64,000 nt of DNA from Escherichia coli (GTDB taxonomy: Bacteria; Pseudomonadota; Gammaproteobacteria; Enterobacterales; Enterobacteriaceae): assembly GCF_030384885.1 (NCBI RefSeq), contig NZ_CP128613.1. One strand, given 5' to 3'. The translations under genes and the position numbers were made by a program. Shown here piece by piece: positions 22,536 to 64,000 of the stretch (position 1 is its first letter; each line of letters opens with the position of its first letter). Under the pieces are notes generated by a model. That model was not told where the DNA came from and ran no database searches. It saw nothing but the letters and a program-made list of their open reading frames with translations.

Positions 22536-22548
22536 CCAGGAGGTTTAT

Positions 22549-44116: not shown

Positions 44117-44452
44117 TAACGGCAATAAACTGTTCACTTCAGTGATATTTAAAATATGCATCCTCTCCCTTTTTTTTAAGTAATTATTATATTCGTGGGG
44201 GAGGAATACACGCTGTCAGGTAATCAATCAAACTGCGATAAATCATCGGCCAGTAAAGTGGAGATAGCCTCCATTCTCGAAAAATTCATACTCTCAGCGA
44301 AACCATCATCAATCACTCATCCAGGCGTTTATGGGAGCGTCGCCAATGGCTGCTAACAATGCCAGACTTCCCCGTTGCCGAAATTCCACATACCACAAAT
44401 GGTCACAGGAATTGGGTGTTGAAATGATTCGGATGAGCATGTATCTTTACGG

Positions 44453-44468
44453 TTATGTTATAACATAA
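44453..44468. promoter_or_regulatory. Zur-box-like perfect palindrome TTATGTTATAACATAA upstream of rpmE2
   Basis: Exact 16-bp palindrome ~10 bp before the rpmE2 start; the L31/L36 paralogue operon is a classic Zur target. Confidence 0.5.
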
Positions 44469-44480
44469 CAGGTAAAAATG

Positions 44481-44744
44481 ATGAAACCCAATATCCATCC
44501 TGAGTATCGTACTGTGGTGTTCCATGACACCAGTGTTGATGAGTACTTTAAAATCGGCTCGACTATCAAAACAGACCGTGAGATTGAGCTGGATGGCGTA
44601 ACGTATCCGTACGTGACAATTGATGTCTCTTCGAAATCGCACCCGTTCTATACAGGGAAGCTGAGAACAGTGGCATCAGAAGGAAATGTTGCACGGTTCA
44701 CCCAACGTTTTGGTCGTTTTGTTAGCACGAAAAAGGGGGCGTGA
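44481..44744 (+). CDS. rpmE2: Ribosomal protein L31 paralogue (type B, zinc-independent)
   Basis: 87 aa ([17 protein letters not shown]…) lacking the CxxC zinc ribbon of canonical L31. Confidence 0.9.
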
Positions 44745-44884
44745 TGAAAGTCCTTAACTCTCTGCGTACCGCAAAAGAACGCCATCCAGACTGTCAGATT
44801 GTGAAGCGAAAAGGACGGCTGTATGTGATTTGTAAATCTAATCCACGTTTTAAGGCCGTTCAGGGACGTAAGAAAAAGCGTTGA
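44744..44884 (+). CDS. rpmJ2: Ribosomal protein L36 paralogue
   Basis: 46-aa basic ORF ([46 protein letters not shown]) whose ATG overlaps the rpmE2 stop (TGATG). Read manually; too small for the track. Confidence 0.85.
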
Positions 44885-44938
44885 TTCATAATTCGCCGGA
44901 TTAACGATATTTGTCTGATTAATAATCAGACCGGATTA

Positions 44939-44972
44939 ATGTTGGTGTATTGATTACACCAACATTAATTTT
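44939..44972 (+). terminator. Rho-independent terminator of rpmE2-rpmJ2
   Basis: 11-bp perfect stem ATGTTGGTGTA / TACACCAACAT with a 5-nt loop, followed by TAATTTT. Confidence 0.7.
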
Positions 44973-45206
44973 CCTGGAAATATATTCTTTAAGTTCATTT
45001 AAAGCCAACTGCCTGACGTTTCTCTCTGAATATTCCATTATATTCATGTTGATTTATTGACCAACTTCTCCCCTGTATGCTGGTATCAACTCTCTTTTAG
45101 ACTGAACAAGCCACTCCGCCCCCTCCCTTTGCGGAGCAGCCTGCATTTACACTCAAACTGTTAAGATGATAAATGTGGTAAATCTGTTGGTACTAACATA
45201 AAACGT

Positions 45207-45437
45207 TTACGCCACAGGAACAGCCTGATCCACCGGTAACCCCATCGCCGACGTTCGAGTGCCAGTTAGAGTAACGCGCACAGATGACTGCACGCAGTGC
45301 CCTGTCAAAGAGGCCATCGTTCCTGTGACAGCTGGCAGCCTTCGTTTAACTTCACTTAATTTGGCTCTTGGGGGGCTTACCGAACAGATGACGTAGTCAC
45401 ACCTATTCAATTTTTCACCACTTATTGGAGTAAACAC
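45207..45437 (-). CDS. Small hypothetical ORF (possibly ykgL-like)
   Basis: 76-aa ORF in the rpmJ2-ecpR intergenic region; no motif support. Confidence 0.25.
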   Translation of the reverse strand: MFTPISGEKLNRCDYVICSVSPPRAKLSEVKRRLPAVTGTMASLTGHCVQSSVRVTLTGTRTSAMGLPVDQAVPVA

Positions 45438-45900
45438 CCATAACCATTTTGTGCGGCATGTTAATCCATTAAAACACCTTATTGATTGTCAAATCCTCTT
45501 TAATGATGGCCAATAATAGTTTTATGTTCTATTTATTATCATTAAAACTTGTTTTTTTACTAGTCGAGCACAAAACGCATTAAGACTATTCCTAACACCT
45601 CAGGGCAAAGTTCCTGGCTAATATAAAATGTAAGTAAGAATTGAACGTTATATTGCCAATAACCTTATGAAACTGAATGTCTTTTTCTTCTTATCAAAAA
45701 AGCAATATTTTCATTTTTAGTAAATATTGACTTAACCATGGAATTCCTTTTCTGTTCACATATTGACACTCATCAGGAAAAAAACATAAATTTAAGCCCA
45801 ATCGAAAATAATTAAAACTTAATCTCGTTTAACCTATATTGATATGTGCTACGTATCTTATTTACTTCCGATTTACTAACAACACTGAATGTACCTGTAA

Positions 45901-46512
<612 letters not shown>

Positions 46513-46586
46513 ACTCCAGGCAAGTTAGTTTTAAAAAATGACTCACAGGGACATCATGTCCTCAATTTAACTCGGGAAGAAAAGCA

Positions 46587-47174
46587 ATGAAAAAAAAGGT
46601 TCTGGCAATAGCTCTGGTAACGGTGTTTACCGGCATGGGTGTGGCGCAGGCTGCTGACGTAACAGCTCAGGCTGTAGCGACATGGTCGGCAACAGCCAAA
46701 AAAGACACCACCAGTAAACTGGTGGTGACGCCACTCGGTAGCCTGGCGTTCCAGTATGCCGAAGGCATTAAAGGCTTTAACTCACAGAAAGGTCTATTTG
46801 ACGTGGCTATTGAGGGTGACTCAACGGCTACCGCCTTTAAACTGACCTCACGTCTTATCACCAACACCTTAACCCAGTTGGATACCTCAGGTTCCACACT
46901 GAATGTGGGCGTGGATTATAACGGCGCGGCAGTCGAAAAAACTGGCGATACCGTGATGATCGATACCGCCAACGGCGTACTGGGCGGCAACCTTAGCCCG
47001 CTGGCTAACGGTTACAATGCCAGCAATCGTACCACCGCACAGGATGGTTTCACCTTCTCCATCATCAGCGGTACCACCAATGGTACCACCGCAGTAACCG
47101 ATTACAGCACTCTACCGGAAGGCATCTGGAGCGGCGACGTTAGCGTACAGTTCGACGCGACCTGGACCAGTTAA
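46587..47174 (+). CDS. ecpA: E. coli common pilus major subunit
   Basis: 195 aa, signal peptide, Thr/Ser/Gly-rich pilin. Confidence 0.95.
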
Positions 47175-47189
47175 TCTCTCTGATGTACC

Positions 47190-47215
47190 AGCAGGGGTAG
47201 CCCCCCTGCTTTATT
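47190..47215 (+). terminator. Intra-operon hairpin after ecpA (stem AGCAGGGG / CCCCTGCT)
   Basis: 8-bp GC-rich stem and TTATT immediately after the pilin stop; candidate partial terminator setting pilin:assembly-gene stoichiometry. Confidence 0.35.
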
Positions 47216-47231
47216 CCTGGACGGAATTGTT

Positions 47232-47900
47232 ATGAAAAAGCACCTTCTGCCTCTCGCTCTGCTGTTTGCCGGAATATCTCCGGCCCATGCGCTGGATGTC
47301 GGCGATATATCATCGTTTATGAACAGTGACAGCAGCACGCTGAGCAAAACAATCAAAAACAGTACCGACAGTGGTCGCCTCATCAATATCCGTCTCGAAC
47401 GGCTCTCTTCACCGCTTGACGACGGGCAGGTTATCGCAATGGACAAGCCGGATGAGTTGCTACTCACTCCCACCAGCTTGCTGCTACCCGCCCAAGCCAG
47501 CGAAGTGATCCGCTTCTTCTATAAGGGACCAGTAGATGAGAAAGAGCGCTATTACCGCATTGTCTGGTTCGATCAGGCCCTCAGTGATGCGCAGCGCGAT
47601 AATGCCAACCGCAGCGCTGTAGCCACTGCTTCCGCCCGCATCGGCACCATTCTGGTCGTCGCCCCCCGCCAGGCGAACTACCGCTTTCAGTACGCCAACG
47701 GCTCCCTGACAAATACAGGAAATGCGACGCTGCGGATCCTCGCCTACGGCCCCTGCCTGAAAGCCGCCAATGGTAAGGAGTGTAAAGAAAACTACTACCT
47801 GATGCCGGGCAAGTCGCGTCGTTTTACCCGCGTGGACACTGCGGATAACAAAGGACGGGTTGCACTTTGGCAGGGTGATAAGTTCATTCCCGTGAAATAG
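47232..47900 (+). CDS. ecpB: ECP pilus periplasmic chaperone
   Basis: 222 aa, signal peptide, operon position. Confidence 0.9.
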
Positions 47901-47925
47901 ATAGCTGTGCAGATGGATAACGACA

Positions 47926-50451
47926 ATGCCTTTACGACGGTTCTCCCCAGGACTGAAAGCCCAGTTTGCCTTCGGCATGGTCTTTTTGTTCGTTCAGCCC
48001 GATGCCAGCGCTGCTGACATAAGCGCGCAGCAAATAGGTGGGGTGATTATTCCGCAGGCCTTCAGTCAGGCGCTTCAGGACGGCATGAGCGTCCCGCTCT
48101 ATATTCATCTTGCCGGTAGCCAGGGTCGCCAGGACGATCAGCGAATCGGCAGCGCTTTTATCTGGTTGGATGATGGACAGTTACGCATCCGGAAAATACA
48201 GCTGGAAGAGAGTGAAGATAACGCCAGTGTCAGCGAACAAACTCGACAGCAGCTGATGGCTCTGGCGAACACCCCGTTCAATGGGGCCCTTACCATCCCC
48301 CTGACTGACAACGCGCAGTTGGATCTCAGCTTGCGCCAACTGCTGCTGCAGCTGGTAGTCAAGCGCGAAGCACTGGGCACCGTACTACGCTCACGTAGCG
48401 AAGACATCGGGCAATCCAGTGTTAACACCCTCAGCAGTAACCTGAGCTATAACTTCGGCATCTATAACAACCAGTTGCGTAACGGCGGGAACAATACATC
48501 CAGCTATCTGTCGCTAAATAACGTGACAGCACTGCGCGAACATCATGTGGTGCTCGACGGCTCGCTGTATGGGATCGGTAGCGGTCAACAGGACAGTGAA
48601 TTATATAAAGCGATGTATGAACGCGATTTTGCTGGTCACCGATTTGCCGGTGGAATGCTCGACACCTGGAACTTGCAGTCCTTAGGGCCGATGACCGCCA
48701 TTTCAGCAGGGAAGATTTACGGCCTTTCCTGGGGAAACCAGGCCAGCTCCACCATCTTCGACAGCAGCCAGTCGGCCACGCCAGTGATCGCCTTTTTACC
48801 TGCAGCGGGCGAAGTACATCTCACCCGTGATGGGCGGTTACTGAGTGTTCAGAACTTCACCATGGGCAATCATGAAGTGGATACCCGAGGTCTACCGTAC
48901 GGTATTTACGATGTGGAAGTTGAGGTGATCGTTAACGGTCGCGTGATCAGCAAACGCACTCAACGGGTCAATAAGCTGTTTAGCCGGGGGCGCGGTGTCG
49001 GTGCGCCGCTGGCGTGGCAGATATGGGGCGGTAGCTTTCATATGGATCGCTGGTCGGAAAACGGGAAAAAGACGCGACCAGCTAAAGAGAGCTGGCTAGC
49101 AGGTGCCTCGAGCTCCGGCTCACTGAGTACGCTTAGCTGGGCGGCAACGGGATATGGATACGATAATCAGGCGGTGGGTGAAACCCGTCTGACGCTGCCG
49201 CTTGGGGGAGCGATCAACGTTAACCTGCAAAATATGCTGGCCAGTGACAGCTCATGGAGCAGCATCGGCAGCATCAGCGCCACTCTACCGGGAGGCTTTA
49301 GTTCGCTATGGGTTAATCAGGAAAAAACCCGCATTGGCAATCAATTGCGACGTAGCGATGCCGACAACCGTGCAATCGGCGGCACACTCAACCTGAACTC
49401 ACTGTGGTCGAAGCTGGGCACATTCAGCATCAGCTACAATGATGACCGCCGTTACAACAGCCATTATTACACGGCAGATTACTATCAAAATGTCTACAGC
49501 GGTACCTTTGGTTCGCTTGGCCTGCGAGCCGGTATTCAGCGCTATAACAACGGCGACAGCAGCGCCAATACAGGGAAATATATCGCTCTCGATCTCTCGC
49601 TACCTCTGGGCAACTGGTTTAGCGCAGGGATGACCCATCAAAACGGCTACACCATGGCAAACCTGTCAGCACGCAAACAGTTTGATGAAGGGACCATTCG
49701 CACTGTTGGTGCCAATCTGTCACGAGCCATCTCCGGCGATACCGGTGATGACAAAACCCTCAGCGGTGGGGCGTATGCACAGTTCGACGCTCGTTACGCC
49801 AGCGGAACGCTGAACGTCAATAGCGCGGCGGACGGCTACGTCAATACCAACTTAACTGCCAATGGCAGCGTTGGCTGGCAGGGTAAAAACATTGCTGCCA
49901 GCGGGCGGACTGATGGCAACGCCGGGGTGATATTCAATACCGGGCTGGAGGACGACGGTCAGCTCAGCGCCAAAATCAACGGACGGATTTTCCCGCTTAA
50001 CGGCAAGCGCAACTACCTCCCGCTCTCTCCGTATGGGAGATATGAGGTGGAGTTGCAGAACAGCAAAAACTCAATCGACAGCTACGATATCGTCAGCGGC
50101 CGCAAAAGCCATCTGACCCTCTATCCAGGCAATGTCGCCGTCATTGAGCCAGAGGTGAAGCAGATGGTTACCGTCTCCGGTCGTATCCGTGCAGAAGACG
50201 GCACACTGCTGGCTAACGCACGGATTAACAACCATATCGGCCGAACCCGAACCGATGAAAACGGCGAGTTTGTCATGGACGTGGATAAGAAATACCCCAC
50301 TATCGATTTTCGCTACAGTGGCAATAAAACCTGCGAAGTGGCACTGGAACTCGACCAGGCGCGCGGTGCCGTCTGGGTCGGTGATGTGGTCTGCAGCGGC
50401 CTCTCATCGTGGGCGGCGGTGACGCAGACAGGAGAAGAGAATGAGAGTTAA
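47926..50451 (+). CDS. ecpC: ECP pilus outer-membrane usher
   Basis: 841 aa, signal peptide, large beta-rich protein. Confidence 0.9.
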
Positions 50452-52084
50452 CCTACTGATAGCGATGATAATCTTTGCGCTATTCTGGCCAGCAACCGCG
50501 CTCAGAGCTGCAGTGAGCAAAACAACCTGGGCGGATGCACCGGCACGCGAGTTTGTGTTTGTCGAAAACAACTCAGACGACAACTTTTTCGTCACTCCTG
50601 GCGGGGCGCTGGATCCGCGCCTGACCGGTGCCAACCGCTGGACCGGTTTAAAATACACTGGCTCAGGAACCATCTATCAACAAAGCCTCGGCTACATTGA
50701 TAACGGTTACAACACCGGCCTTTATACCAACTGGAAGTTTGATATGTGGCTGGAAAATTCGCCGGTTTCATCTCCTTTAACTGGCTTGCGCTGCATCAAC
50801 TGGTACACAGGGTGTAATATGACCACCAGTCTTATCCTGCCGCAAACCACCGACGCCAGTGGATTTTATGGCGCGACGGTGACCAGCGGCGGCTCGAAGT
50901 GGATGCACGGCATGTTGTCAGACGCGTTTTACCAGTATCTGCAACAAATGCCCGTTGGCAGCAGCTTTACGATGACCATCAATGCCTGCCAAACCTCAGT
51001 GAACTATGACGCCAGCAGCGGCGCGCGCTGTAAGGATCAGGCCTCCGGCAACTGGTATGTTCGCAACGTCACCCATACGAAAGCAGCAAATTTGCGGTTG
51101 ATAAATACCCATTCGCTGGCGGAGGTATTTATCAACAGCGACGGAGTACCGACTCTGGGCGAAGGGAACGCCGACTGCCGGACGCAAACCATCGGCAGCC
51201 GTTCAGGATTAAGTTGTAAGATGGTTAACTATACCCTGCAAACAAACGGGCTCAGCAACACCTCAATCCATATATTCCCGGCGATCGCCAACTCGTCGTT
51301 AGCCTCGGCCGTCGGGGCGTACGATATGCAGTTCAGTCTGAATGGCAGTTCATGGAAACCGGTGAGCAATACCGCCTATTACTACACCTTCAACGAGATG
51401 AAGAGCGCAGACTCGATCTATGTTTTCTTCTCGAGCAACTTCTTTAAGCAGATGGTGAACCTGGGGATCAGCGATATCAACACCAAAGATCTATTCAACT
51501 TTCGCTTTCAGAACACCACATCACCGGAGTCTGGCTGGTATGAATTTTCTACCTCCAACACGCTGATTATCAAACCCCGTGATTTCAGCATCAGTATTAT
51601 CTCCGATGAATATACTCAGACACCGTCGCGAGAGGGATATGTCGGCAGCGGCGAACCGGCACTCGATTTCGGCTATATCGTAACCACCAGCGGTAAAACA
51701 GCTGCCGACGAAGTGCTGATCAAGGTGACCGGACCCGCGCAGGTGATTGGCGGGCGCTCCTATTGTGTCTTCAGCTCCGATGACGGTAAGGCGAAAGTAC
51801 CGTTCCCGGCGACGCTTTCCTTTATTACCCGCAACGGAGCTACAAAAACCTACGATGCCGGGTGCGATGATAGCTGGCGGGATATGACCGATGCGCTGTG
51901 GCTAACCACACCGTGGACTGATATCTCTGGCGAAGTGGGGCAGATGGATAAGACCACAGTCAAATTTTCGATTCCAATGGATAACGCCATTTCGCTGCGT
52001 ACGGTAGATGATAACGGCTGGTTTGGCGAAGTCAGCGCTTCAGGAGAGATTCATGTTCAGGCGACGTGGCGTAACATTAACTAA
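50441..52084 (+). CDS. ecpD: ECP pilus tip adhesin
   Basis: 547 aa, signal peptide; overlaps the ecpC stop. Confidence 0.9.
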
Positions 52085-52763
52085 GACCCTGCTGACAGTG
52101 GTCTGTATGCTGGCGACACCTTTGACACAGGCGATTTCGGTCGGCAATCTGACTTTTTCACTGCCGTCCGAGACTGACTTTGTCAGCAAACGTGTAGTGA
52201 ATAACAACAAAAGCGCGCGGATATACCGTATTGCCATCAGTGCCATCGATAGTCCAGGCAGCAGTGAATTGCGCACTCGACCGGTGGATGGTGAACTGCT
52301 TTTCGCTCCCCGCCAGCTGGCGTTGCAGGCTGGTGAGAGTGAGTATTTTAAATTTTACTATCATGGTCCACAGGATAACCGCGAGCGCTACTACCGGGTC
52401 TCATTTCGCGAGGTCCCCACTCGCAACCAGACAAGACGCAGCCCAACCGGCGGCGAGGTCAGCACGGAGCCGGTGGTGGTGATGGATACCATTCTGGTAG
52501 TACGACCTCGTCAGGTTCAGTTTAAATGGTCCTTCGACCAGGTGACAGGAACGGTAAGTAACACCGGCAACACGTGGTTTAAGCTACTGATTAAACCAGG
52601 ATGTGATTCGACCGAAGAGGAAGGCGACGCCTGGTATCTACGTCCGGGAGACGTAGTTCATCAGCCTGAGTTACGTCAGCCGGGGAATCATTATCTGGTC
52701 TATAACGACAAATTCATTAAGATTAGCGATTCCTGTCCTGCTAAGCCCCCTTCGGCGGACTAA
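52053..52763 (+). CDS. ecpE: ECP pilus second chaperone
   Basis: 236 aa from [11 protein letters not shown]; paralogous to EcpB (shared …RYYRI/RYYRV… motifs); overlaps the ecpD 3' end. Confidence 0.85.
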
Positions 52764-52923
52764 GACTTATCCATCGGACGAGGGAAGAATTCCACCTCAG
52801 AGACTCAAATAATCGTTTAAATGATGTGGAAGCGATCGTCAATGTCACCTGTAATGATGGGCTTTCTCATATGTACACCATAGTGTTCAGGAGACACGGA
52901 AAAGTGCCAGGCAGCCTGCTAAC

Positions 52924-53053
52924 GAGTGGTTTCTTCACGAATTAGTACGTAAAATCGGTAACGGCTGGAAATCATTCAATACTCACACTATCGAAAGTTC
53001 CCCAGCCAACCGCGGTACGTTCTTACATACGATGTACCGCTGTTCTCTTTACG
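52924..53053 (+). repeat. Copy A of a ~130-bp imperfect direct repeat (non-coding), upstream of ykgJ
   Basis: By-eye alignment with 57096..57227 gives roughly 75% identity, with shared blocks GAAATCATTCAATA(C/T)TC(A/G)CACTATC, CCAGCCAACCGCG and CATACGA. Confidence 0.5.
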
Positions 53054-53076
53054 ATTTATAGCTGTACTGGTGAATT

Positions 53077-53406
53077 ATGAGCAATCTGAATCCATGCATG
53101 ACGTGTGGTGCCTGTTGTGCATTTTTCCGCGTCTCTTTTTACTGGGCCGAAGCCGACGATGCTGGCGGTACCATTCCCGCCAGGCTCACTGAACAAATAT
53201 CCCCTTTTCACCGATGCATGAGCGGTACCAATCAGAAAAACCCCCGATGTATTGCCCTTGCAGGAACACCGGGCAAAAATGCCTGCTGCACGATATATAA
53301 AAATCGATCGTCCACGTGCAGAGAATTCGCCATGTCTGGTGAGAACGGAGAAGTCAATGAGGCTTGCAATCGTGCAAGAGCTAAATACGGGCTGACACCG
53401 TTATAA
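53077..53406 (+). CDS. ykgJ: Cysteine-rich putative Fe/Zn-binding protein
   Basis: 109 aa; CMTCGACC and further Cys clusters. Confidence 0.85.
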
Positions 53407-53428
53407 ATATGCAATAATTAATTGCACT

Positions 53429-53464
53429 GCCCCGCCAGCTATAATCGCGGGGCTTCGTTTTTCA
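53429..53464 (+). terminator. Rho-independent terminator of ykgJ
   Basis: Stem GCCCCGC / GCGGGGC followed by TTCGTTTTT. Confidence 0.65.
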
Positions 53465-53611
53465 GGGATAACAAAACCCGAAACTTCTTCCATCTGCCAG
53501 CAACAATGCCTCTTCCTCTATAGTGTTCTCCGGATCTACAGCATCCTGAAGTAGCGCGATGTACTCACTGGCTATCTGCATCAGAAAGTTAAAAACAATG
53601 TTTTTAACCTA

Positions 53612-53640
53612 TAAAAATGGCGCTGTATTTGCGCCATTTT
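53612..53640. terminator. Bidirectional terminator-like hairpin (AAAAATGGCGC … GCGCCATTTTT) 3' of yagU
   Basis: Perfect stem flanked by an A-tract and a T-tract. Confidence 0.5.
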
Positions 53641-53654
53641 TATCATTCAATGCA

Positions 53655-54269
53655 TTATCTGTTTGAGCCTAAAGGGATCTCAGGGTCTGGCTCATGAGTA
53701 ATTCTGTTTCGTAAATCTCTGCGAATAATTTCAATGGACCAGAACCAGACTAAATGTCCAAAAATTTCAGAAACATTCTCATACCACGGGAGATCAAACA
53801 GAGGTGGCGTCAGTCCCATGAGAGGGAATGAAATCATATGAACAAAAAGTTGGGCTAAAGCACCTGCCAGTAAGCCCTGCCAGAGTTTAATTTTTGGAAA
53901 TACTTCAGCGACCACACAATAACCGACAGCAAACACTATCGAAAAGATAATGTGCGTAACACCAACCCAGTTAAAGACATGCCCGGCAAAGGTATAAACA
54001 GCCGCATTGGGATCTGTCAGCCCCAGCCAGTCTCGAAGAAAAATATACGGAGGATTGAGAAAATTACGGGAGCAATCAATTTGCCCAGCAGCCCTGATTA
54101 ATGATTCCGGGCCACACGCTGCATTAAACATATCCACCGGGCTACGTGGCGGCAATGGAACTTCAGCCCCCCACTTCACAAATGCGGAAACAACGCCAGC
54201 AATTAGCCCAATGAATGCAGCAAGACCATAACGTCTGCGGTTCGGTGGAGTTTGTTCAAATATATTCAT
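53655..54269 (-). CDS. yagU: Inner-membrane protein (DUF1440)
   Basis: 204-aa multi-TM protein. Confidence 0.85.
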
Positions 54270-54331
54270 ATTTACCCTGTTTGTTTCATTATGTTGTACA
54301 CCTCTTCAGGAGTATTCATAAAACAAGATAA

Positions 54332-54500
54332 ATGTAAAGAACTGTATTGTTTTGTATAATGCAATGGTGACTAATCGCCAATTAATATAAGCACCATCAT
54401 TTCTCCATATTTTTATGTTAGAAGTGACAAGGAGAAATGTAATGTTTCTCTCAGAGAATATAAATCATTCCTTTTGCCCACCTTAATGGTGGGCTTTTTT
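54332..54500 (+). ncRNA. Candidate short transcription unit: promoter (perfect -10 TATAAT at ~54355), 14-codon ORF (MFLSENINHSFCPP, 54442..54486, SD AAGGAG) and intrinsic terminator (54476..54500)
   Basis: TATAAT preceded by TG; then an RBS-plus-mini-ORF whose stop sits inside a GC-rich hairpin (GCCCACC-TTAAT-GGTGGGC) followed by TTTTTT. Confidence 0.35.
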
Positions 54501-54865
54501 ATGCAAAACCTGAACACCCTGTGGTATTCCCCTGGCATTATCACTTTCGCGATTAACCAACAGCCAGACCAGCAAACACGCCACTACAGGCACAGCAAAA
54601 TCCATCAGGCTTGCCACACCCCATGCGTGCGGCTCAAAGCCGCCCCGCCATGGCATATTAATCCGCTTACCATTTTCGAACAGCTGATTGGTTTAGTCCG
54701 GTGTTTCCCTGCTTGCACTTAAAAATGAGCGGATGGGAAACTCTCGAAATGGTTCGTCGATATGCTCACCTTTCAGTCAGGCATTTCACCGCGCACGCGA
54801 GCAAAATCAAAGGCACATGAGGAGAATGTGGTTGACTTAAAAACGAGGAAACTTATTGATTTAAA

Positions 54866-54912
54866 TGGTGCCGATAATAGGAGTCGAACCTACGACCTTC
54901 GCATTACGAATT
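54866..54912 (-). tRNA. Pseudo-tRNA: 3' ~47 nt of a tRNA-Thr (thrW-like) = att core of an integrated element
   Basis: The minus strand reads …ATTCGTAATGCGAAGGTCGTAGGTTCGACTCCTATTATCGGCACCA (anticodon arm with CGU, T-arm GGTTCGACTCC, acceptor 3' strand + CCA); the 5' half (GCCGATA…) is absent, so this is a fragment. Confidence 0.75.
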
Positions 54913-55282
54913 ATAAGAATCCGTTTCTAATTCAAAGCATTACCACATCAACACTGCGCTCACACGTCCCACCACATCAAAACATGTAAAGCCTTGCAAG
55001 CCATTGTGAGGCCTTATGTGTCTCAGTTTTGTCCCACCTTGTATTACGACTTGCATAACCAATGAAGATAAACGTGACGACAAACGACGCAGCAGTCTTC
55101 TTTTCTTTCACACTTTCCCCACTCAGCATGCATACCTTCTACTATAACTGTAGTGAATGTCTGTTATGAGCGAGGAGCGGACTATCTTTCTGTGCTAAGC
55201 ACAGAAGTTTAAATTAATAAATAGAGATTAAGATGTTTATTGGTTACATTGATATTTATAATTTGATTGCCTTGAAATTCCT

Positions 55283-55322
55283 AAGCCGAATTCATGACGT
55301 CTTCATCACATGAATTCGGCTT
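55283..55322. terminator. Perfect 14-bp-stem hairpin (AAGCCGAATTCATG … CATGAATTCGGCTT) 3' of the 447-aa cargo gene
   Basis: Exact reverse-complement arms around a 12-nt loop, ~30 bp beyond the gene's stop. Confidence 0.55.
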
Positions 55323-55351
55323 ATGCATAATACTAAGTTGGTTTTATTAAG

Positions 55352-56695
55352 TCATTTCTTTGCCGCGCTTTTATTGCACTTCTTACAGCCTTCAATCAAT
55401 TTTTCAGTTATTATATAATAATAAGGAATGTAAATGTTTAACCCGCAAGTTTTAATCGAATCGAAAGCAAGAACTTTCACAATGGATTCTTCTCCATCTT
55501 TCTCCATTAGCAATATATCACTTAAAGGCAAATCATTAGGATTGTAAATCCTCACATCGCCAGGCTGTCTTTCATAGGCTTCGATGTCATCACCTGGTTG
55601 GCCATAGGCTAAATGAGTGGCTTTAATCCAGTTTATTGGTTCAGCATTTTGACACCAGGAGATTATTTTTTCTAATTTTTCAGGTGTGTAAGCTTTTACA
55701 TAATCTCCATGTTTTTCACATCTACCTAGTTCTGAAAAATGGCCCAGGGTGTATTCATAAGAATAATCACCAGCAGTCAATGGTAGTCTAAAGTATTGCT
55801 GAGGCAATGCCTTCTGGACTTTGGTTTTACTCAGCAAATTAAAGGTGATATCATAAAGTTGATATAGACAAACACCCTCTCGATCTGGATATCCATAAGG
55901 CTTGATGTCAGAAAGCATCTCAATATCAGAATTATAAACACTTGCATAATCATCACTTCCAAACATGAAAAAACCTTTTGATAGAATGAATATTGCATTA
56001 GGAAGAACGTTTTTTTCAAAATTCTGCGAGTGAGTTTTTATTTCTTGTACTATGTCCATCCAATCCATATCAGTATCATAGGCGAAGATAATTCCAAAAC
56101 CATTAGTCTGAATTCTCTCCTCTGAATGTATAAATATGTTCTGATTTATACCATGTTTCTTTAGTTTTTTGAATGAGCGGATATTTTCGAAAGCACTTTT
56201 CAGTTCTTTTTTTGTTAGTTTTGACTTAACCTGAATCACACCATAGCAGTACTCCACAGGTAAAACCTCAAAAATTTCCTGTCGCTGCATAAGCGAAAAT
56301 GAATTAAAAGCATCATAAAAAAGAATGTCGATTTCATTACTGAGATGTCCTGAGGTTGACGCTACACGGACACTTGATTTTGAGATGGCATAGCTTTGCG
56401 GTAAGAGTTTATTTTCATTGAAAAAGCATCTTAAGAGTTCCTCTCTGACAGTACCAACATCTCTTGGATGCTTAATATCTTTCGATATTTCAAAATCTTG
56501 AAGCATTTTCCTCTGTAAGTGAATGAACTCCCTTTCAAGACCATAAAATTCTTTATCTTTAGATCTCAGTTTGCTTGCACGAGAAACTTGATCGGATATC
56601 CATTCCTTTGTGCGAGACTCTCTCTCAGCAAAATCATCACGTTGTTTTTTTACAGCACCGGTCAAGCGTTTTCTTGTGTTTTCATTATCGGACAT
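55352..56695 (-). CDS. Hypothetical 447-aa protein of unknown function (AT-rich cargo gene; possible PD-(D/E)xK-like nuclease motif)
   Basis: Long uninterrupted ORF in visibly AT-rich DNA, K/E-rich N-terminus, a segment (…EIDILFYDAF…EYCYGVIQVKSK…) reminiscent of a restriction-endonuclease-like fold; stands alone between a terminator and the repeat/invertase region. Confidence 0.7.
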   Translation of the reverse strand: MSDNENTRKRLTGAVKKQRDDFAERESRTKEWISDQVSRASKLRSKDKEFYGLEREFIHLQRKMLQDFEISKDIKHPRDVGTVREELLRCFFNENKLLPQSYAISKSSVRVASTSGHLSNEIDILFYDAFNSFSLMQRQEIFEVLPVEYCYGVIQVKSKLTKKELKSAFENIRSFKKLKKHGINQNIFIHSEERIQTNGFGIIFAYDTDMDWMDIVQEIKTHSQNFEKNVLPNAIFILSKGFFMFGSDDYASVYNSDIEMLSDIKPYGYPDREGVCLYQLYDITFNLLSKTKVQKALPQQYFRLPLTAGDYSYEYTLGHFSELGRCEKHGDYVKAYTPEKLEKIISWCQNAEPINWIKATHLAYGQPGDDIEAYERQPGDVRIYNPNDLPLSDILLMEKDGEESIVKVLAFDSIKTCGLNIYIPYYYIITEKLIEGCKKCNKSAAKK

Positions 56696-57095
56696 AAATT
56701 AACCTTAAGTTGATAAGTTTTGTGGTGAATTTATAAAGCCTGAGGGATAAACATTTATAGTCTATAAGTTACTATTTATTTGAGATAGTAAGCCAATTTT
56801 ATTAGATGAAGAAACGTTCATAACCTCCTCAACTACGTTTCAATCGGCAACATCGGAGAAGTACACTTTGACAATATATAGCATATTGAAGCAGCTGTAA
56901 CTTAGAGCGCGTACACTCAAGATTTCCCGCTGCGGTGATGGCGGACGACTGCGTTTGATAACTCATTTCCCTCACCAACTATCGGACCTGTTCCTGATTG
57001 ATTATCACATTATAATGTGAGCAATGTCCGCTCCTAGCACATAGCAGTTCTAGAGACAATGGCGTAAAGTCATGGAGAATCGGTGGGAGGATATT

Positions 57096-57227
57096 CAGTT
57101 TCATTCATGCCGAAATACGGTAAAATCTATAACAGATAGAAATCATTCAATATTCGCACTATCAGAAGCTGGCCAGCCAACCGCGCACGATTTTGCATAC
57201 GACATGCTACGGTTTCATTTATCTCCG
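57096..57227 (+). repeat. Copy B of the ~130-bp imperfect direct repeat
   Basis: See copy A (52924..53053). Confidence 0.5.
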
Positions 57228-57814
57228 ACCGGAAACTTCTTATACAGTGTCGATACACCAACATCATAGATGATCTCCACCTTCTGGCGAGGAACGCCTG
57301 ATGCAATTAATCGCCCGGCCTGCGCCCTTTGTTCTGGTGTAAGTTTGGGACGACGTCCACCAATTCGTCCCTGTGCGCGAGCAACTTCCAGTCCAGCTTT
57401 TGTTCGTTCAACAATCAGTTCTCGTTCCATTTCAGCCAGGGCACCCATCACATGAAAGAAAAAACGCCCCATCGGTGTGCTGGTATCAATAGCATCCGTC
57501 AGGCTGCGAAAATTAACGCCACGTTCGCGCAACTCCTCAACCAGAATGACCAGATGGACAAGCGTGCCGGGACCGGGTTTATTCAGCGCTTCAATCAGGC
57601 GATCGCGCTGGTCAAAGCAGTCATCTCCCACCACATAAGCTGTGATGGACGGGCGGAAAGTGACTTTTCCCAGATCTTCGGTATAGGGCTTGTCGCGGTT
57701 CGGGTATTCATGTGTTTCCACACGGCGACCGGTTCCCGCACTTTCTTCTTCAACCTTAAACGGCACACCTCGAAATGACGCATCCTGAAGCCTGTCTTTC
57801 CACGTCATATACAC
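57215..57814 (-). pseudogene. Pin/Hin/Gin-family serine invertase C-terminal fragment fused to an unrelated N-terminus
   Basis: The C-terminal ~115 aa (…ELRERGVNFRSLTDAIDTSTPMGRFFFHVMGALAEMERELIVERT…RRPKLTPEQ…STLYKK) match the invertase core and HTH; the N-terminal ~85 aa show no resolvase catalytic-Ser region. Confidence 0.6.
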
Positions 57815-57821
57815 TCCGAAA

Positions 57822-57850
57822 ATAAAAAAGCCACCTATTAGAAGGTGGCC
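57822..57850 (-). terminator. Rho-independent terminator of the lipoprotein-like gene
   Basis: Stem GCCACCT / AGGTGGC followed on the minus strand by a T-tract (TTTTTATTTT). Confidence 0.6.
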
Positions 57851-57869
57851 TTGTAATGAATTTTATTAA

Positions 57870-58400
57870 TTAGCGAGTCAGAAACAACGAATCTTTATAC
57901 TTTTGCTGTTGTTCATTTAAATACTTAGCTGTTTCATCGCTGGCAAATGGAAATATTACCGTATTTTTAGGCATGGTAATTTCTTTTTTGTCCAGCGTCA
58001 GAGTAAACATAGGAACATACTGAGCAGAGTAACGCACCGCAGAAACGAGCTCTAGTTTAGACTCTTCAATAACACTTAAATTATCCAGGCTAACTTTCTC
58101 TTCATCTTTTTTCTTTGACGCATTTAAAGTTTTTATTACTTTATTTAATTTCTCCTGAAAATCCTCCTTAAAGTTTTCAGGATTGCCGTCGACAACAAGA
58201 ATCTGTTCACCCTGATTATCTGGAAAAATAATCTTTGCACTTATCAATTTATTTTCTTTATAAACATCACCAAGTTTTATGGCTCCTCCAGATAACTGAA
58301 TAATATGTTCATCTTTAAAGGAGATGTTGCCAGAGATTATGAGAGATGAAAAAATAGCCGCTGCTCCAAGAATTACACTTGCTGTGATATAGCCTTTCAT
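57870..58400 (-). CDS. Hypothetical signal-peptide/lipoprotein-like protein (AT-rich cargo)
   Basis: 176-aa ORF with an N-terminal hydrophobic segment (MKGYITASVILGAAAIFSSLIISG), Lys/Glu-rich, in visibly AT-rich DNA, with its own terminator. Confidence 0.6.
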   Translation of the reverse strand: MKGYITASVILGAAAIFSSLIISGNISFKDEHIIQLSGGAIKLGDVYKENKLISAKIIFPDNQGEQILVVDGNPENFKEDFQEKLNKVIKTLNASKKKDEEKVSLDNLSVIEESKLELVSAVRYSAQYVPMFTLTLDKKEITMPKNTVIFPFASDETAKYLNEQQQKYKDSLFLTR

Positions 58401-58491
58401 TTTTCGCCTATTAACATTTTTCTAAATGTGCATTAATTCTATCACTCTATTTATGACTTACAACCAGCAATACATGTGAGGGGAATCCTGG

Positions 58492-59623
58492 CTACCAAAA
58501 TCGGGTATAGCCAACATCGTGATTTATATCAATGCCACTGGAGCGTGTTTCCGTAACCCGCATACCTGGTGGCATATTTATAAATGATACCTTGATCTCA
58601 CCATCAACTTTTGGCGCGGTAGCTTTATTAATCATGAAGGGATTCGGGCCTGTGGCATCGGAGGCGTTGTTTGCCTGAGCCGGATCCACCGCCGGATAAG
58701 GAGTGTATCCCCGTGCCGGTATTCCCGTCTTCGATATTGTTGAAGGTGGCGCGATCGGTGTTCTGCACCATGTGCAACGGCACCCGGAACAGACGACAGA
58801 TTTCTTCAAGCTGAAACTTGCGGGTTTCCAGGAACTGGCTGTCCTCGGCGTTCAGCGCCATCGACTTCCAGTCCAGCCCCATCTCAAGGATCATCGGGCG
58901 GTGAGCATTACCAAGCCCGGTGTGACGCTCCTCAAAATCTTTCTTCAGGCGCTCATAAGCCTGATCCGACAGCGTCTGTTCTGTACGCAACACACCCGAC
59001 GTCACCGCGCCATTGCTGAACAGTCTGGCCCCGTGCTCTTCGGTCGCAGCTGCCAGCGATATTGCCTCACGGGCATAGGCGATGGGATTCAGTCCCACCA
59101 GACCGTCCAGCGTCAGCGTGCGCACATGCCAGATATCCTCCTGGCTCAGTACATCCGTGGAGCCATCCGGGAATGTGACCTGATAGACCGGCTCCCAGCT
59201 ACTGTTAAGCTTCGGTACCACACAGCCGGGATCGACGGGCAGCAGTTCAGCCACTTCGCCAAATGCTTTCACTTTGTAGGCGTAAAAGTTTCCCCGCAGG
59301 CACAGACAGGTGACCACCAGCTCCCAGAACTCCTGCGGCGTCATATAGCCATTGGGATGCGTGGAGATCAGCTTATGCAGACGTTCGCCAGTGGCTCTCT
59401 GCTTCAGGCTGCCGTTCAGGTGATACAGGTTGCAGGGCAACATCCCGACCGACTCCGCCAGCACCCTGACACAGGAAAAAACCGCCGTCAGTCGCATGGC
59501 CCGCTGGCTGCTGATCTGCTTTCCGGTATAGGTGTCGTAGGACAACCCGATGGCATCCGCCAGCTCTGCTGGCGTGGTCACCGGTGCGTCACTTTTTCGT
59601 TGAAATAATCCCGAAAAGAACAC
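58492..59623 (-). pseudogene. Phage portal protein (HK97 family), frameshifted and truncated
   Basis: ORF 58628..59623 (331 aa) is portal-like until ~58720, where it runs into a low-complexity tail; the continuation lies in another frame (58492..58809). Confidence 0.7.
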
Positions 59624-59805
59624 TATTTACCTCCGCCGACAGACAGCTGTGTACGATCGAGATATCGCGCCACCAGCCACGACCAGAACAGGCACAGCGC
59701 CCCGGCAACAACAAAACCCGCCGGGGGATAAATCAGCCAGGCACCATATGCCAGCAAAAGCGCACCCAGCACGCCCACCAGAGGCGCGAGAATCAGCATG
59801 ATCAT
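59623..59805 (-). CDS. Small hydrophobic protein between portal and terminase
   Basis: 60-aa ORF with two predicted TM helices; stop overlaps the portal start. Confidence 0.4.
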
Positions 59806-59816
59806 AATTACCTCAG

Positions 59817-61550
59817 TTAAAGCGAGCGGATCCCGTAGGACTCAATGTGGTCAGACAGCGTGTCTTCTTTCTCGTACAGCATGGCTCTGCCAACCGCCAT
59901 AATCAGCGCAACTGCACCATCGATTTTGTTTTCCGCCTGCTCTTTGACGGGTTTCACCACATCATCGTTACCCGGAATGGTTTTGCCGACCACGTTGCCG
60001 ATACACCAGGTCATGATGGGATTGCCGTCATGATGAAAGCGCCCCGATTCAATTGCCGCTTCCAGCTCTTTCATCGGGTCGGACATGTTGGTGTAGTTCT
60101 GAATGATAGTGATGGGGTTCAGGTCTTCATCAGCAAGGTCATGTGACAACCCGGTCGCCCCGAAGGGGTCGATGGGTGACTCACTGACCGGGCTGATTTT
60201 GTTCGCCGCTTTGGCCTCCTCGAGGATGTAGCGATAATCCACCTCCGCACCATCGGTAACGGTCAGAACGCCCATTTCCACCCATTTCTGAAAGCGTTCG
60301 GCTGTCCGTCGATCTTCATTTTTCTCGACGCTGTACACCGTGTCATACGGTACCCAGAAACGCGGGGCCACACTGTAGTAATGCGTTTTACCGTCAATCT
60401 CGCGGGTATAAAGTCGCGCCATGCTGTTCATATCCAGCTTACGCGCCAGGTCAAAGGCCAGAATGCACGGCTGCCCCTCGAACTGCTCAAGAGTCAGTGA
60501 TTTATCCTCGCATCTCTGCCAGCTCACCAGGTTGAAATACGCCGAACGCGCCGACACCCAGATATTGAGGTGTTTTGTTTTAAAGACGTTTGCCAGACGG
60601 GCGTTATTTTTCGCACGTTGCTGCTGGCTTAACAAAAACTCGCGATAAACCGACACACCGATATTCGGGTTAGCTTTTTCAAGTACCTGCGGGTCGGTCC
60701 AGTCGTCGCCTTCGTCAACGGTATAGATGATCCCGAACAGTTCATCGTTGGGCACCGAGCCGTTGAGCATCTCGATGACTTCCCGCCGTTTGTCGTAGCA
60801 CGGCCCCTCAATGTTGTACCCGGCGGTGGTAATGGCCCACATCAGTGGCTGGCGTCGCGCCCCCATCCCGGTAAGCATCGTGGTGTAAAGCGCATCTGTG
60901 GCGTGCTCGTGATATTCATCCACCACCGCACAGTGGGGTGATGAACCATCACCGGGGTTACCGATCAGCGGTTCAAACCGCGCACCATCCTCCGGACGGT
61001 TCATGTTTGAGGCGTTAACCTCAATCCCGAACGCTTCCGTCAGCATGGGTGTGCGTTTACACATCAGTCGTGCCGGACGAAAGACTTCCCATGCCTGTTT
61101 CTCCGTCGTGGCACCGGAATACACTTCCGCGCCGAACTCGTTATCACAGGCAAAACAATACAGGGCGACACCGGCAGAGATTGCCGATTTGCCGTTCTTA
61201 CGGGGGATTTCGGTATACACCTCACGGAAGCGGCGCAGCCGGGAGCCTTTATTGACCCAGCCAAACGCGCAGCAGATCACAAAGAGCTGCCACGGCTCCA
61301 GCGTGATGGGCATCCTCTTAAATGCCCACTCACCCTTGGTGTGCGGCAACAGCTGAATAAATTTCGCGGCCCGTTCAGCCAGGTCCTTGTCGAAGCGGTA
61401 ACGAAACGACTTACTTTTTTCCTCCATCAGGTCATCAAGATGGCGCTGGCAGGCCTGAATCACAAACTGGCAGGCCACAATCTTTCCGTGCACGACATCA
61501 CGGGCATACTGATTGGCAGCATTTACGTTGGGGTAAGATTTCCGGCTCAT
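59817..61550 (-). CDS. Phage terminase large subunit
   Basis: 577 aa; ATPase Walker-type region (…EIPRKNGKS…) and C-terminal nuclease region; overlaps the small-subunit gene by 4 bp. Confidence 0.9.
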
Positions 61551-62050
61551 GATTCGATGATTTTCAGAAACGGGTTAGTGGCTTTCTTCTGCCCCGCCAG
61601 GCCAATCAGACGCTGGCGGCTGCTGGGGTCGAGTCCGAGCATTGCCCCCGTACTGCTCATCTCGGACTCCTGTTCTTTTTTGGCGGTCAGCTCCGGATTT
61701 TTGACCATACCGCCCATTGCACCGGTGATGGTGTTGCCCTGTCTGGCAATATTTTTCACGGCACGTCGCCAGAACTCGTAGGCCACGCACCACCGCTCAA
61801 GCACCGCGAGGTCAGTCACGCACAGCAGGCCCTGACCGCAGAGTTCTTTAGTTGTCAGTTGCCACATGATCGTGGCGAGAGGGAGATCTTCTTCAGCGAA
61901 CCACTCCGGTGGCTCAACACCTTTGATGGGCGTAAAAACAGGTTCATCTTTATTCAGGGCTCGCTTGCCGGGGTTTCCGGCCAGCGCCTTGCGCGCCGTT
62001 GGCTTGGGGCGACGCCCGGAACGCCCCGCCGTTCCAGCCATATGCGGCAC
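61547..62050 (-). CDS. Phage terminase small subunit (P27/HK97-type)
   Basis: 167 aa, basic N-terminus, immediately upstream of the large subunit. Confidence 0.8.
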
Positions 62051-62166
62051 TCCTGGTTAAATTTCATTTTTCGCGGGTATAAAAAAACGATGGGGCGGGC
62101 AGTCCGGAAGACGTCAGGTCACAGGGATTTGACCCGCCCCTCCCCTCTGGCAGTGGGAACTGGTTC

Positions 62167-62517
62167 TTACTTCAGCCGTTCACGGGCCGTCTTCGCCTTA
62201 TGACACGGCCAGCACAAACTCTGCAGATTACTGTCGACATCAGTGCCGCCATGCGATTTAGGGATGATGTGGTCAACGGTCTTCGCCTCACGCACCACAC
62301 CAGCACGCAGACATAACTGACACAGGCCTTTGTCACGCTTCAGGACACGCGCGCGGATACTGTCCCACTTCGAACCGTAGCCGCGCTGATGACGGGATTG
62401 TCCAGGTTTGTATTGCTTCCAGCCTTCGCTTTTGTGGCTTTCGCAGTAGCCTGAAGGGTCCGTGGTTGTAAAGCGGCAGCCGCGAACACGGCAGGCTTTT
62501 GGGGTTCGTGGGGGCAT
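62167..62517 (-). CDS. HNH endonuclease (packaging-associated)
   Basis: 116 aa; HNH motif (…VDHIIPKSHGGTDVDSNLQSLCWPCHKAKT…) with a zinc-finger cysteine pair; typical position before terS. Confidence 0.85.
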   Translation of the reverse strand: MPPRTPKACRVRGCRFTTTDPSGYCESHKSEGWKQYKPGQSRHQRGYGSKWDSIRARVLKRDKGLCQLCLRAGVVREAKTVDHIIPKSHGGTDVDSNLQSLCWPCHKAKTARERLK

Positions 62518-63041
62518 ATGTACTCCAATGAAGAAACCAGCGAAATAGCTGCCTTCATTCGTAGTAAACCTTTTTCATCAACGCAGTAATGGATTCTTTG
62601 AAGAGTCGCGATCAATACAACTCACTAATGGAGAGACTTGTCTCACGCATGAGACAAATTTCCCGTTTGATTTAATGGACACTATAGAGGGACAGAATGC
62701 CTTCCTCACTCGAATCACATCAATTAAGGAGGTTCAACATGTTTCATTCCACAAGTCATCAGGCTGTAATTATGGCAGCATCAGTTTGTGCCAAAGACCT
62801 TTTCCGCTTCACTTTGAGCCTGATTCATTTCTACCTGACCGGCTCGCCTCTATCTTTTTAATCCCCGCTTTATCCAAATTGCATTGCCATAATGCCGACA
62901 ACACACTGACATTCAAATCCAGACTACCTCCAATAGTCTGACCGTACACCTATATAGTTTTAATTTTCATCAATCCATTTAACTATCGTTTAATTGTTGT
63001 CACATAGGATTCTGCCGTTTTTAACAATGCAGGATAATAAG

Positions 63042-63335
63042 ATGAAAAAAATGTTGTTTTCTGCCGCTCTGGCAATGCTTATTACAGGATGTGCTCAACA
63101 GACGTTTACTGTTGGAAACAAACCGACAGCAGTAACACCAAAAGAAACCATCACCCATCATTTCTTCGTTTCGGGAATTGGACAGGAGAAAACTGTTGAT
63201 GCAGCCAAAATTTGTGGCGGCGCAGAAAATGTTGTTAAAACAGAAACCCAGCAAACATTCGTAAATGGATTGCTCGGTTTTATTACTTTAGGCATTTATA
63301 CTCCGCTGGAAGCGCGTGTGTATTGCTCACAATAA
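63042..63335 (+). CDS. bor: Bor-like outer-membrane lipoprotein
   Basis: 97 aa from MKKMLFSAALAMLITGC (lipobox); sequence essentially as I recall lambda Bor. The track ORF starts earlier at 62994. Confidence 0.85.
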   Translation: MKKMLFSAALAMLITGCAQQTFTVGNKPTAVTPKETITHHFFVSGIGQEKTVDAAKICGGAENVVKTETQQTFVNGLLGFITLGIYTPLEARVYCSQ

Positions 63336-63366
63336 TTGCATGAGTTGCCCATCGATATGGGCAGCT

Positions 63367-63828
63367 CTATCTGCACTGCTCATTAATATACTTCTGGGTT
63401 CCTTCCAGTTGTTTTTGCATCGTGATCAGCCTCTCTCTGAGGGTGAAATAATCCCGTTCAGCGGTGTCTGCCAGTCGGGGGGAGGCTGCATTATCCACGC
63501 CGGAGGCGGTGGTGGCTTCACGCACTGACTGACAGACTGCTTTGATGTGCAACCGACGACGACCAGCGGCAACATCATCACGCAGAGCATCATTTTCAGC
63601 TTTCGCATCAGCTAACTCCTTCGTGTATTTTGCATCGAGCGCAGCAACATCACGCTGACGCATCTGCATGTCAGTAATTGCCACGTTCGCCAGCTTCAGT
63701 TCTCTGGCATTTTTGTCGCGCTGGGCTTTGTATGTAATGGCGTTATCACGGTAATGATTAACCGCCCATGACAGACAGACGATGATGCAGATAACCAGAG
63801 CGGAGATAATCGCGGTTAATCTGTTCAT
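63367..63828 (-). CDS. Rz: Lysis protein Rz (i-spanin)
   Basis: 153 aa, N-terminal TM anchor and coiled-coil region; start ATG overlaps the endolysin stop (ATGA). Confidence 0.9.
63426..63608 (-). CDS. Rz1: Lysis lipoprotein Rz1 (o-spanin), embedded in Rz in the +1 frame
   Basis: 60 aa with lipobox LVVVGC and proline-rich [15 protein letters not shown], entirely inside Rz. Confidence 0.85.
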
Positions 63829-64000
63829 ACCTCAATCTCTCTGACCGTTCCGCCCGCTTCTTTGAATTTTGCAATCAGGCTGTCAGCCTTATGCTCGAAC
63901 TGACCATAACCAGCGCCCGGCAGTGAAGCCCAGATATTGCTGCAACGGTCGATAGCCTGACGAATATCACCGCGATCAATCATCGGTAAAGCGCCACGCT
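63825..64000 (-). CDS. R: Endolysin R (lambda-type lytic transglycosylase), C-terminal part only; the gene continues past the window end
   Basis: Manual translation of the minus strand gives …[56 protein letters not shown], matching the lambda R C-terminus. Confidence 0.8.

Follow-up and report, generated by a model that had tools for sequence, protein, structure and literature searches.

The question raised by the right-hand end of a 64,000-nucleotide (nt) stretch of the Escherichia coli contig NZ_CP128613.1 (hereafter, the window) is what kind of element brings together, at positions 54866-64000, a fragment of a tRNA gene, AT-rich cargo genes, a defective portal gene and intact packaging and lysis genes. 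This segment is the tail-side end of a prophage inserted in the tRNA-Thr gene thrW, and the element as a whole is, with high probability, one lambdoid, cos-packaging prophage of the SfV/SfI/SfII/e14 type that carries internal deletions. The finding is an ordinary one, namely, a new deletion derivative of a known, well-described prophage family at a classic tRNA hotspot, and as a prophage, the element is of little significance, being another decayed member of a thoroughly described group. The sole lead worth following is the product of a cargo gene beside the attachment (att) site, a DUF6602 protein: a NucC-like nuclease without a cyclase partner that is rare in E. coli and whose homologs are found in defense-gene neighborhoods.

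The insertion is anchored at 54866-54911, where the minus strand reads ATTCGTAATGCGAAGGTCGTAGGTTCGACTCCTATTATCGGCACCA, that is, the 3' 46 nt of tRNA-Thr(CGU) thrW, from the anticodon loop to the CCA end; a preliminary description of this DNA, made from the letters alone, had recognized the thrW-like 3' piece and put its length at about 47 nt, one too many. The 46-mer has a single match in the window (chance expectation of 0 in an exact-pattern search) and is identical, letter for letter, to the att core published for phages SfI, SfII, SfV and SfX (PMC3636060). Neither ARAGORN nor Rfam detected a complete tRNA in the window, as expected for a 46-nt fragment. Sixty-two base pairs (bp) that include the core (54850-54911) are identical to the integrase-side junction of the prophage in strain EH10-18-47, our reference. 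The empty site is preserved in strain 2013C-4282, which is collinear with window positions 1-49963 at 99.984% identity (8 mismatches) and identical over 44000-54911; in this prophage-free strain, the order is yagU, a hypothetical gene, an integrase remnant, a complete tRNA-Thr gene, proA and proB. Because 2013C-4282 continues into thrW and proA at 54911, the fragment in the window is the displaced original 3' end of thrW, and the DNA to the right of it is inserted. The phage entered through site-specific recombination at the final 46 nt of thrW, displacing the original tRNA end to its place beside yagU, and a rebuilt thrW adjoined by int and xis would be expected beyond the window, next to proA. 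The exact Sf core and the empty site in 2013C-4282 thus bear out the earlier proposal that the prophage is anchored at a duplicated att sequence of thrW.

An intact prophage of about 38.5 kb occupies the identical thrW site in EH10-18-47. From the att side, its order is att fragment, DUF6602 gene, pinE, tail fibers, baseplate, DNA-circularization gene, a gene for 176 amino acids (aa), tape measure, tube, sheath, connectors, capsid, protease, portal, ymfR, terL, terS, HNH, lysis genes, Q, replication, immunity, xis, int, thrW and proA. The lambda-type lysis genes (R in part, Rz with embedded Rz1, and bor) and the HK97-type packaging module (HNH, terS, terL and portal) were located where the preliminary description had placed them, although the reading of this combination as a special mosaic does not hold. 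It is the family norm: phages of the SfI family have been described as lambdoid mosaics that combine structural genes like those of SfV and e14 with lambda-like early genes and integrate into thrW beside proA, and the standard SfV/SfI/e14 architecture pairs head and packaging genes of the HK97 type with a contractile tail of the Mu type and with lysis and early genes of the lambda type (PMC3636060); the same order is found in intact EH10-18-47. The contractile tail genes, a full set of which is present in EH10-18-47, are represented in the window by fragments only.

The relatives that match best change along the element. The packaging block (terS, terL and portal) is 97% identical at the nucleotide level to those of Shigella phages SfII, SfIV and SfI, and the stretch from portal to R, including iss/bor, is 98.4% identical to an e14-like prophage located at icd in MDR_56. 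The lysis/bor block shows 98% identity to MDR_56 but 84% or no match to the EH10-18-47 reference, so that ordinary lambdoid module exchange is visible. With the Sf phages SfV, SfI, SfII and SfIV, lambdoid myoviruses at thrW/proA, the element shares the 46-nt att core, the terS, terL and portal genes at 97% identity, the 10-nt cos overhang, the module order and a cargo slot between the end of the tail-fiber region and att (PMC3636060). Unlike these phages, it comes from an E. coli host, has lost head and tail genes amounting to about 15.4 kb, contains an e14-type pinE remnant, and carries the DUF6602 nuclease gene instead of gtrABC in the slot. No gtrABC or oac O-antigen genes were found beside att, where the slot holds the DUF6602 gene only, which places the element outside the serotype-converting subclass. 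K-12 e14 and the e14-like prophage at icd in MDR_56 share with it near-identical structural and lysis genes, ymfR, the pinE invertase gene and a defense-type gene between pin and att (DUF262 in MDR_56; mcrA in K-12 e14), and e14 is likewise a deletion remnant. These prophages differ in the integration site (icd, with intE, versus thrW) and in cargo, and their deletions are distinct and independent.

What sets the element apart from its intact relatives are two deletions. A blastn comparison with the EH10-18-47 prophage locus (L003) yields three collinear blocks: window 54812-57556 corresponds to L003 551-3303 (98.9% identity), 57553-58729 to 10453-11629 (97.8%) and 58728-62517 to 19865-23662 (97.1%), with breakpoints at 57553-57556 and 58728-58729. 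The first deletion, of about 7.15 kb, extends from pinE to the DNA-circularization gene, is joined at GATG (57553-57556), and removed the 5' part of pinE, the invertible fiber segment, the fibers, the baseplate and most of the DNA-circularization gene. The second, of about 8.24 kb, runs between codon 299 of the portal gene and the tape-measure 3' end, is joined at TC (58728-58729), and removed the 3' end of the portal gene, the protease, capsid, connector, terminator, sheath, tube and assembly protein genes and most of the tape-measure gene. Compared with the reference, the window lacks 15.4 kb in all (protease, capsid, connectors, sheath, tube, baseplate and fibers), and the interval from terL/portal to the att fragment spans 3.8 kb in the window versus 19.3 kb in the reference. 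The protein-profile matches (PHROG and NCBIfam) split exactly at both junctions. The absence of capsid and tail genes noted previously is therefore accurate for the capsid, whereas fragments of the tape-measure, DNA-circularization and pinE genes are present.

The remnants at the junctions retain the signatures of both partners. The 199-aa chimera matches the PHROG baseplate hub over residues 2-87 and DNA invertase over residues 86-196, having lost the N-terminal part of the recombinase catalytic domain and kept the C-terminal DNA-binding part of PinE; deletion 1 is in frame by chance, hence this open reading frame (ORF) at 57215-57814. At the second junction, the tape-measure fragment is 97.8-99.9% identical at the nucleotide level to the tape-measure genes of intact relatives, and the portal fragment matches TIGR01537 over residues 39-301 (a 343-position profile) and the PHROG portal over residues 1-301. 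The portal ORF (331 aa) continues out of frame to 58628 and overlaps a 105-aa tape-measure ORF (both within 58492-59623). Thus, the portal gene is not frameshifted, as had been thought, but consists of 299 codons that the deletion of about 8.24 kb joined to the last 77 or so tape-measure codons in another frame; the overlapping 331-aa and 105-aa ORFs are probably what was taken for a frameshift. Both deletions arose by illegitimate recombination after integration, at microhomologies of 4 and 2 bp. Two more specific routes were considered and rejected: deletion mediated by Pin, given that the junction falls within the coding part of pinE and that the two partners have no more than GATG in common, and repeat-mediated deletion, given that no direct repeats flanking either junction were found. 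Neither junction is present in any of the 5426 complete E. coli genomes that constitute our survey. The locus can serve as a worked example in which a near-clonal strain with an empty site and an intact relative at the same site jointly place both junctions to the base.

Three points weigh against the interpretation of the element as a single prophage with two deletions. The visible part amounts to 9.1 kb, and the immunity region, int, xis and the other att copy are located outside the window. None of the sequenced prophages is the exact parent: different segments match different ones best (99.3-99.4% to HZ13/MB06171, 99.9% to C11 and 98.4% to MDR_56), and the search for an E. coli genome or phage record covering at least 80% of the element returned none, nor was an exact parent or a sibling with both junctions found. 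Finally, there is a small formal chance of assembly error at both junctions, which could be chimeras formed from an e14-like and an SfV-like prophage of the same genome, in which case the real prophage would be complete. Prophages of the SfV/e14 family have a median of 6 matching places per E. coli genome, several of them near-identical, and the three blocks have different best matches, as such joins would predict. Misassembly driven by repeats joins sequences within shared repeats, however, whereas the partners here are unrelated and share 4 and 2 bp; moreover, the three blocks all agree in order and orientation with one reference prophage, and large independent deletions occur in finished genomes that carry the same prophage. 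We accordingly regard an assembly artifact as quite improbable.

Still less probable, in our assessment, is a helper-dependent, satellite-like element that kept cos, HNH, terS and terL for packaging by an SfV/e14-type helper. All four are indeed intact while the virion building blocks are all lost, and related prophages, which are potential helpers, are usual in E. coli strains. Yet the deletion ends cut the portal, tape-measure, pinE and DNA-circularization genes, which points to accident rather than to a streamlined design; other copies of the prophage decay differently, one of them without packaging genes; and the junctions, being unique among the surveyed genomes, give no sign of spread. 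The remnant would also measure about 23 kb, if the rest is intact, versus a capsid capacity of 38.5 kb, and cos systems would package so short a genome poorly. A phage satellite of the phage-inducible chromosomal island (PICI) or P4-like kind was rejected on account of the 97-99% identity to a full prophage, the location of the junctions inside genes and their uniqueness among the 5426 genomes. The remaining alternative, an intact prophage with a sequencing frameshift in portal and the structural genes just past a window that ends inside R and so leaves part of the element unseen, has next to no chance of being correct provided that the assembly is right, considering that the family order (lysis, packaging, head, tail, att) puts head and tail between portal and the att fragment, that this interval lies wholly in the window and is only 3.8 kb long compared to 19.3 kb in the reference, and that the portal ORF turns into tape-measure sequence at 58728/9; for the same reasons, the full structural set and intact portal that the preliminary description envisaged just beyond the window have no place there.

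A prophage with these two deletions cannot produce virions, having lost its capsid, protease, connector, sheath, tube, baseplate and fiber genes. The apparent lack of an integrase, which had been offered in support of the judgment that the element is probably immobile, is no evidence of immobility but an effect of the window edge. Members of this family carry int and xis at the opposite end, beside the complete thrW and about 38 kb away, where they are present in EH10-18-47, MB06171 and USMARC-49610. Excision may be possible, depending on int and xis beyond the window.

Features of the prophage end and its chromosomal flank, in window coordinates, with the evidence for each assignment.
Feature	Position	Strand	Evidence or remarks
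382-bp block outside the prophage	54430..54811	+	57-aa ORF plus integrase 3' remnant
57-aa ORF in the 382-bp block	54483-54656	-	RefSeq annotation of the identical 2013C-4282 sequence
Tyrosine integrase gene, 3' remnant	~54697-54811	+	88% identity over 50 bp to the 3' end of EH10-18-47 int
att core, tail-side prophage-chromosome junction (called attR)	54866..54911	-	Exact core match; empty-site strain
Phage-side att arm, non-coding, 38% GC	54912..55351		98.9% identical to the EH10-18-47 prophage arm
DUF6602 cargo gene, 447 aa	55352..56695	-	Pfam PF20247, 1.7e-22
In-frame chimeric ORF, 199 aa	57215..57814	-	DNA-circularization/baseplate-hub aa 1-87 plus about the last 112 aa of PinE invertase
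AT-rich moron, 176 aa	57870..58400	-	PHROG 5485 (unknown function), full length, 4e-108
Tape-measure 3' fragment, ~77 codons plus stop	58492..58727	-	PHROG tape-measure profile positions 370-440 of 443
Portal codons 1-299 of 413, cut by deletion 2	58728..59623	-	TIGR01537 portal_HK97; PHROG portal
ymfR-like membrane protein gene, 60 aa, intact	59623..59805	-	Length and position as in L003 and L004
terL, 577 aa, intact	59817..61550	-	RefSeq terL length in L003 and L004; 97-98% nt identity
terS, P27 family, intact	61547..62050	-	TIGR01558, 76 bits vs 45.6-bit cut-off
cos cohesive end TGCCCGCCCC	62092..62101	-	Between HNH and terS; read directly
HNH endonuclease gene, terminase-associated, 116 aa, intact	62167..62517	-	PHROG 144, 9e-46; RefSeq name
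bor/iss lipoprotein gene	63027..63335	+	PHROG 260 Bor-like outer membrane protein, 4e-59
Rz spanin gene, 153 aa	63367..63828	-	PHROG 13 Rz-like spanin, 1e-78
Rz1, 60 aa, embedded in Rz, other frame	63426-63608	-	PHROG 3198, 3.7e-30
Endolysin R, 3' end, cut by window edge	63825..64000	-	PHROG 90 endolysin, 5e-17; homolog in RefSeq is glycoside hydrolase family 24

Outside the deletions, the element is well preserved: cos, HNH, terS, terL, ymfR, bor/iss and Rz/Rz1 are intact, with gene lengths as in intact relatives, and the survival of these full-length genes suggests that the decay of the prophage is recent. All genes to the right of the att fragment are on the minus strand except bor, which runs opposite to the late genes, encodes 97 or 102 aa, depending on whether translation starts at the ATG at 63042 or at the one at 63027, and has a homolog at 98% nucleotide identity that is annotated iss in RefSeq. 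The terL gene is 97% identical to those of SfII and SfIV, and the 10-nt cos sequence TGCCCGCCCC is the one reported for SfI (PMC3636060). NCBIfam gave no match for bor, terL, Rz, R or the DUF6602 protein.

The DUF6602 gene fills the att-side slot that is held by gtrABC in Sf phages, by DUF262 in MDR_56 and by mcrA in K-12 e14. It is AT-rich, as the cargo of this element had been described, with 35% GC (the 176-aa ORF has 34%) versus 56% from portal to HNH, and a hairpin with 20-nt arms (55277-55328) lies immediately 3' of its stop codon. The 447-aa protein combines an N-terminal NucC-like PD-(D/E)xK nuclease fold with a conserved C-terminal domain of about 150 aa. PADLOC reports matches to PD_DExK (2e-27) and NucC, NucC chains in the PDB are matched by sequence (7e-9), and the nearest folds other than NucC are those of the restriction enzymes Kpn2I, Bse634I, NgoMIV and Cfr10I; the C-terminal domain searched alone has no PDB match. 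The invariant residues are D123, E148, Q155 and K157 in the N-terminal part and C326, H329, C437 and C440 in the C-terminal domain. Within the former group, D123, E148 and K157 are accompanied by Q155, which aligns with the E of the NucC EVK, so that the motif is Q-x-K versus E-x-K.

NucC itself is the effector activated by cyclic triadenylate (cA3) in CBASS and type III CRISPR. The DUF6602 protein differs in the Q-x-K motif and in the additional C-terminal domain, and no cyclase or Cas10 gene lies beside its gene, the neighbors of which are the att site and pinE. Two distant DUF6602 homologs have no adjacent cyclase either, their neighbors being Thoeris or island genes. Another comparison is with Damona, a single-gene defense system from a Vibrio cholerae cassette that is reported to contain DUF6602 and to show PD_DExK and CBASS endonuclease profile matches (bioRxiv 10.1101/2024.07.02.601686); compared by description only, the 447-aa protein agrees with it in having the DUF6602 domain together with PD_DExK and NucC profile matches. 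It is plausible, judging from these sequence features, that the protein is a stand-alone, single-gene defense nuclease.

Full-length DUF6602 homologs of about 450 aa are widespread in Proteobacteria, one of them located beside Thoeris in a P4-like island and another in an island with integrase and AlpA genes. In Stutzerimonas (loci L013/L014, 5193-9389), a 68%-identical homolog directly follows a Thoeris-like set of ThsB-TIR, SIR2/STALD and TIR_2 genes, within a P4-like island that encodes an integrase, Toprim_3 and DUF3987. The DUF6602 gene is found in 4 of the 5426 E. coli genomes, always at the thrW locus and at nucleotide identities of at least 99.8%. It survived at least three independent decays of the carrier prophage. 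In USMARC-49610, which carries the same prophage, a deletion from tape measure to Q and an IS3 have left the DUF6602 gene intact, and in MB06171 (locus L006, 9000-14330), nothing is left between the att fragment and thrW but DUF6602, IS3, DUF4222, xis-like and int genes. The decay routes differ among five carriers of this prophage, and all of them spare the cargo gene beside att. The cargo, above all this NucC-like nuclease, is what the host may benefit from, and one possibility, which we put forward tentatively and would not consider the likelier outcome, is that the remnant persists for its cargo, a self-contained anti-phage nuclease in which the Cys/His C-terminal domain would replace the cyclic-oligonucleotide trigger. 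Retention by selection is read from five carriers, and the same pattern could equally mean recent decay.

A pair of 22-nt inverted repeats with 86% complementarity (55161-55182 and 57026-57047) flanks the DUF6602 gene together with the sequence upstream of it and could mark a cassette boundary or be due to chance. The homology of MB06171 to the window stops at about 57070, where its IS3 begins.

The second cargo gene, that of the 176-aa ORF, is a typical moron. It has a hydrophobic N-terminus, lies between the tape-measure and DNA-circularization genes, which abut in the e14-like prophage of MDR_56 where this ORF is lacking, and has no match in Pfam, PADLOC or NCBIfam. A promoter-like site with an extended -10 element (58463-58436) is present upstream, and a terminator with a 10-bp stem and a T-run (57852-57827) follows directly downstream. 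Both this ORF and the DUF6602 gene look independently transcribed. The two genes are intact, in keeping with the earlier impression of expressed-looking accessory genes with their own terminators; the support from regulatory signals is thinner, given that the promoter scan is uninformative (10 sites versus 12.2 expected) and the mild enrichment in terminators (6 versus 3.0 +/- 1.8 expected) leaves the case resting mainly on the strong terminator after the 176-aa ORF.

On the chromosomal side, the genes to the left of the element are ecpD, ecpE, ykgJ and yagU (50441-54269). The absence of paoABCD and yagP had been noted correctly: the K-12 segment 297308-302829 (yagP-paoDCBA) is replaced by 382 bp. 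The pao-less arrangement occurs in 1294 of the 5426 genomes, including the prophage-free sister strain 2013C-4282, and because it is a common lineage variant shared by that strain, the loss of pao and yagP predates the prophage and is independent of it. The 382-bp block contains the integrase remnant (~54697-54811), which is located just outside the segment originally delimited as prophage and is separate from the int of the family; judging from its content, the block is probably the scar of an earlier thrW occupant that was removed together with the pao region.

The comparison with K-12 CP4-6, which the preliminary description had called for, shows a common attachment site, and none of the content of CP4-6 is present in the window. 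CP4-6 also occupies thrW, with a 3' thrW fragment on the yagP/yagU side of the chromosome. It is, however, a 34-kb P4-type island with intF beside the att fragment, whereas the element in the window is a lambdoid myovirus prophage with int at the opposite end. Homology to CP4-6 was thus rejected, the shared sequence being limited to the att fragment and the flank. Islands resembling CP4-6 do precede the att fragment in two other strains: in HZ13 (locus L007, 1-19800), an integrative island with type I Zorya and type I restriction-modification (RM) systems, and in USMARC-49610 (locus L008, 1-19850), an island with SIR2, TIR and type I RM genes. The tandem placement of such islands with the prophage indicates that thrW carries tandem arrays of elements.

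Two minor observations concern intergenic sequences. The ykgJ-yagU intergenic region (53449-53649, minus strand) contains a full-length match to the Rfam small RNA IS009 (RF02111; 199.6 bits versus a gathering score of 117). In addition, about 87 bp located 3' of the pinE remnant (57116-57202) match, at 79.5% identity, part of the spacer between ecpE and ykgJ (52946-53032) that is also present in K-12 (304227-304313) and overlaps a weak, sub-threshold Rfam match to CssrB (53011-53063).

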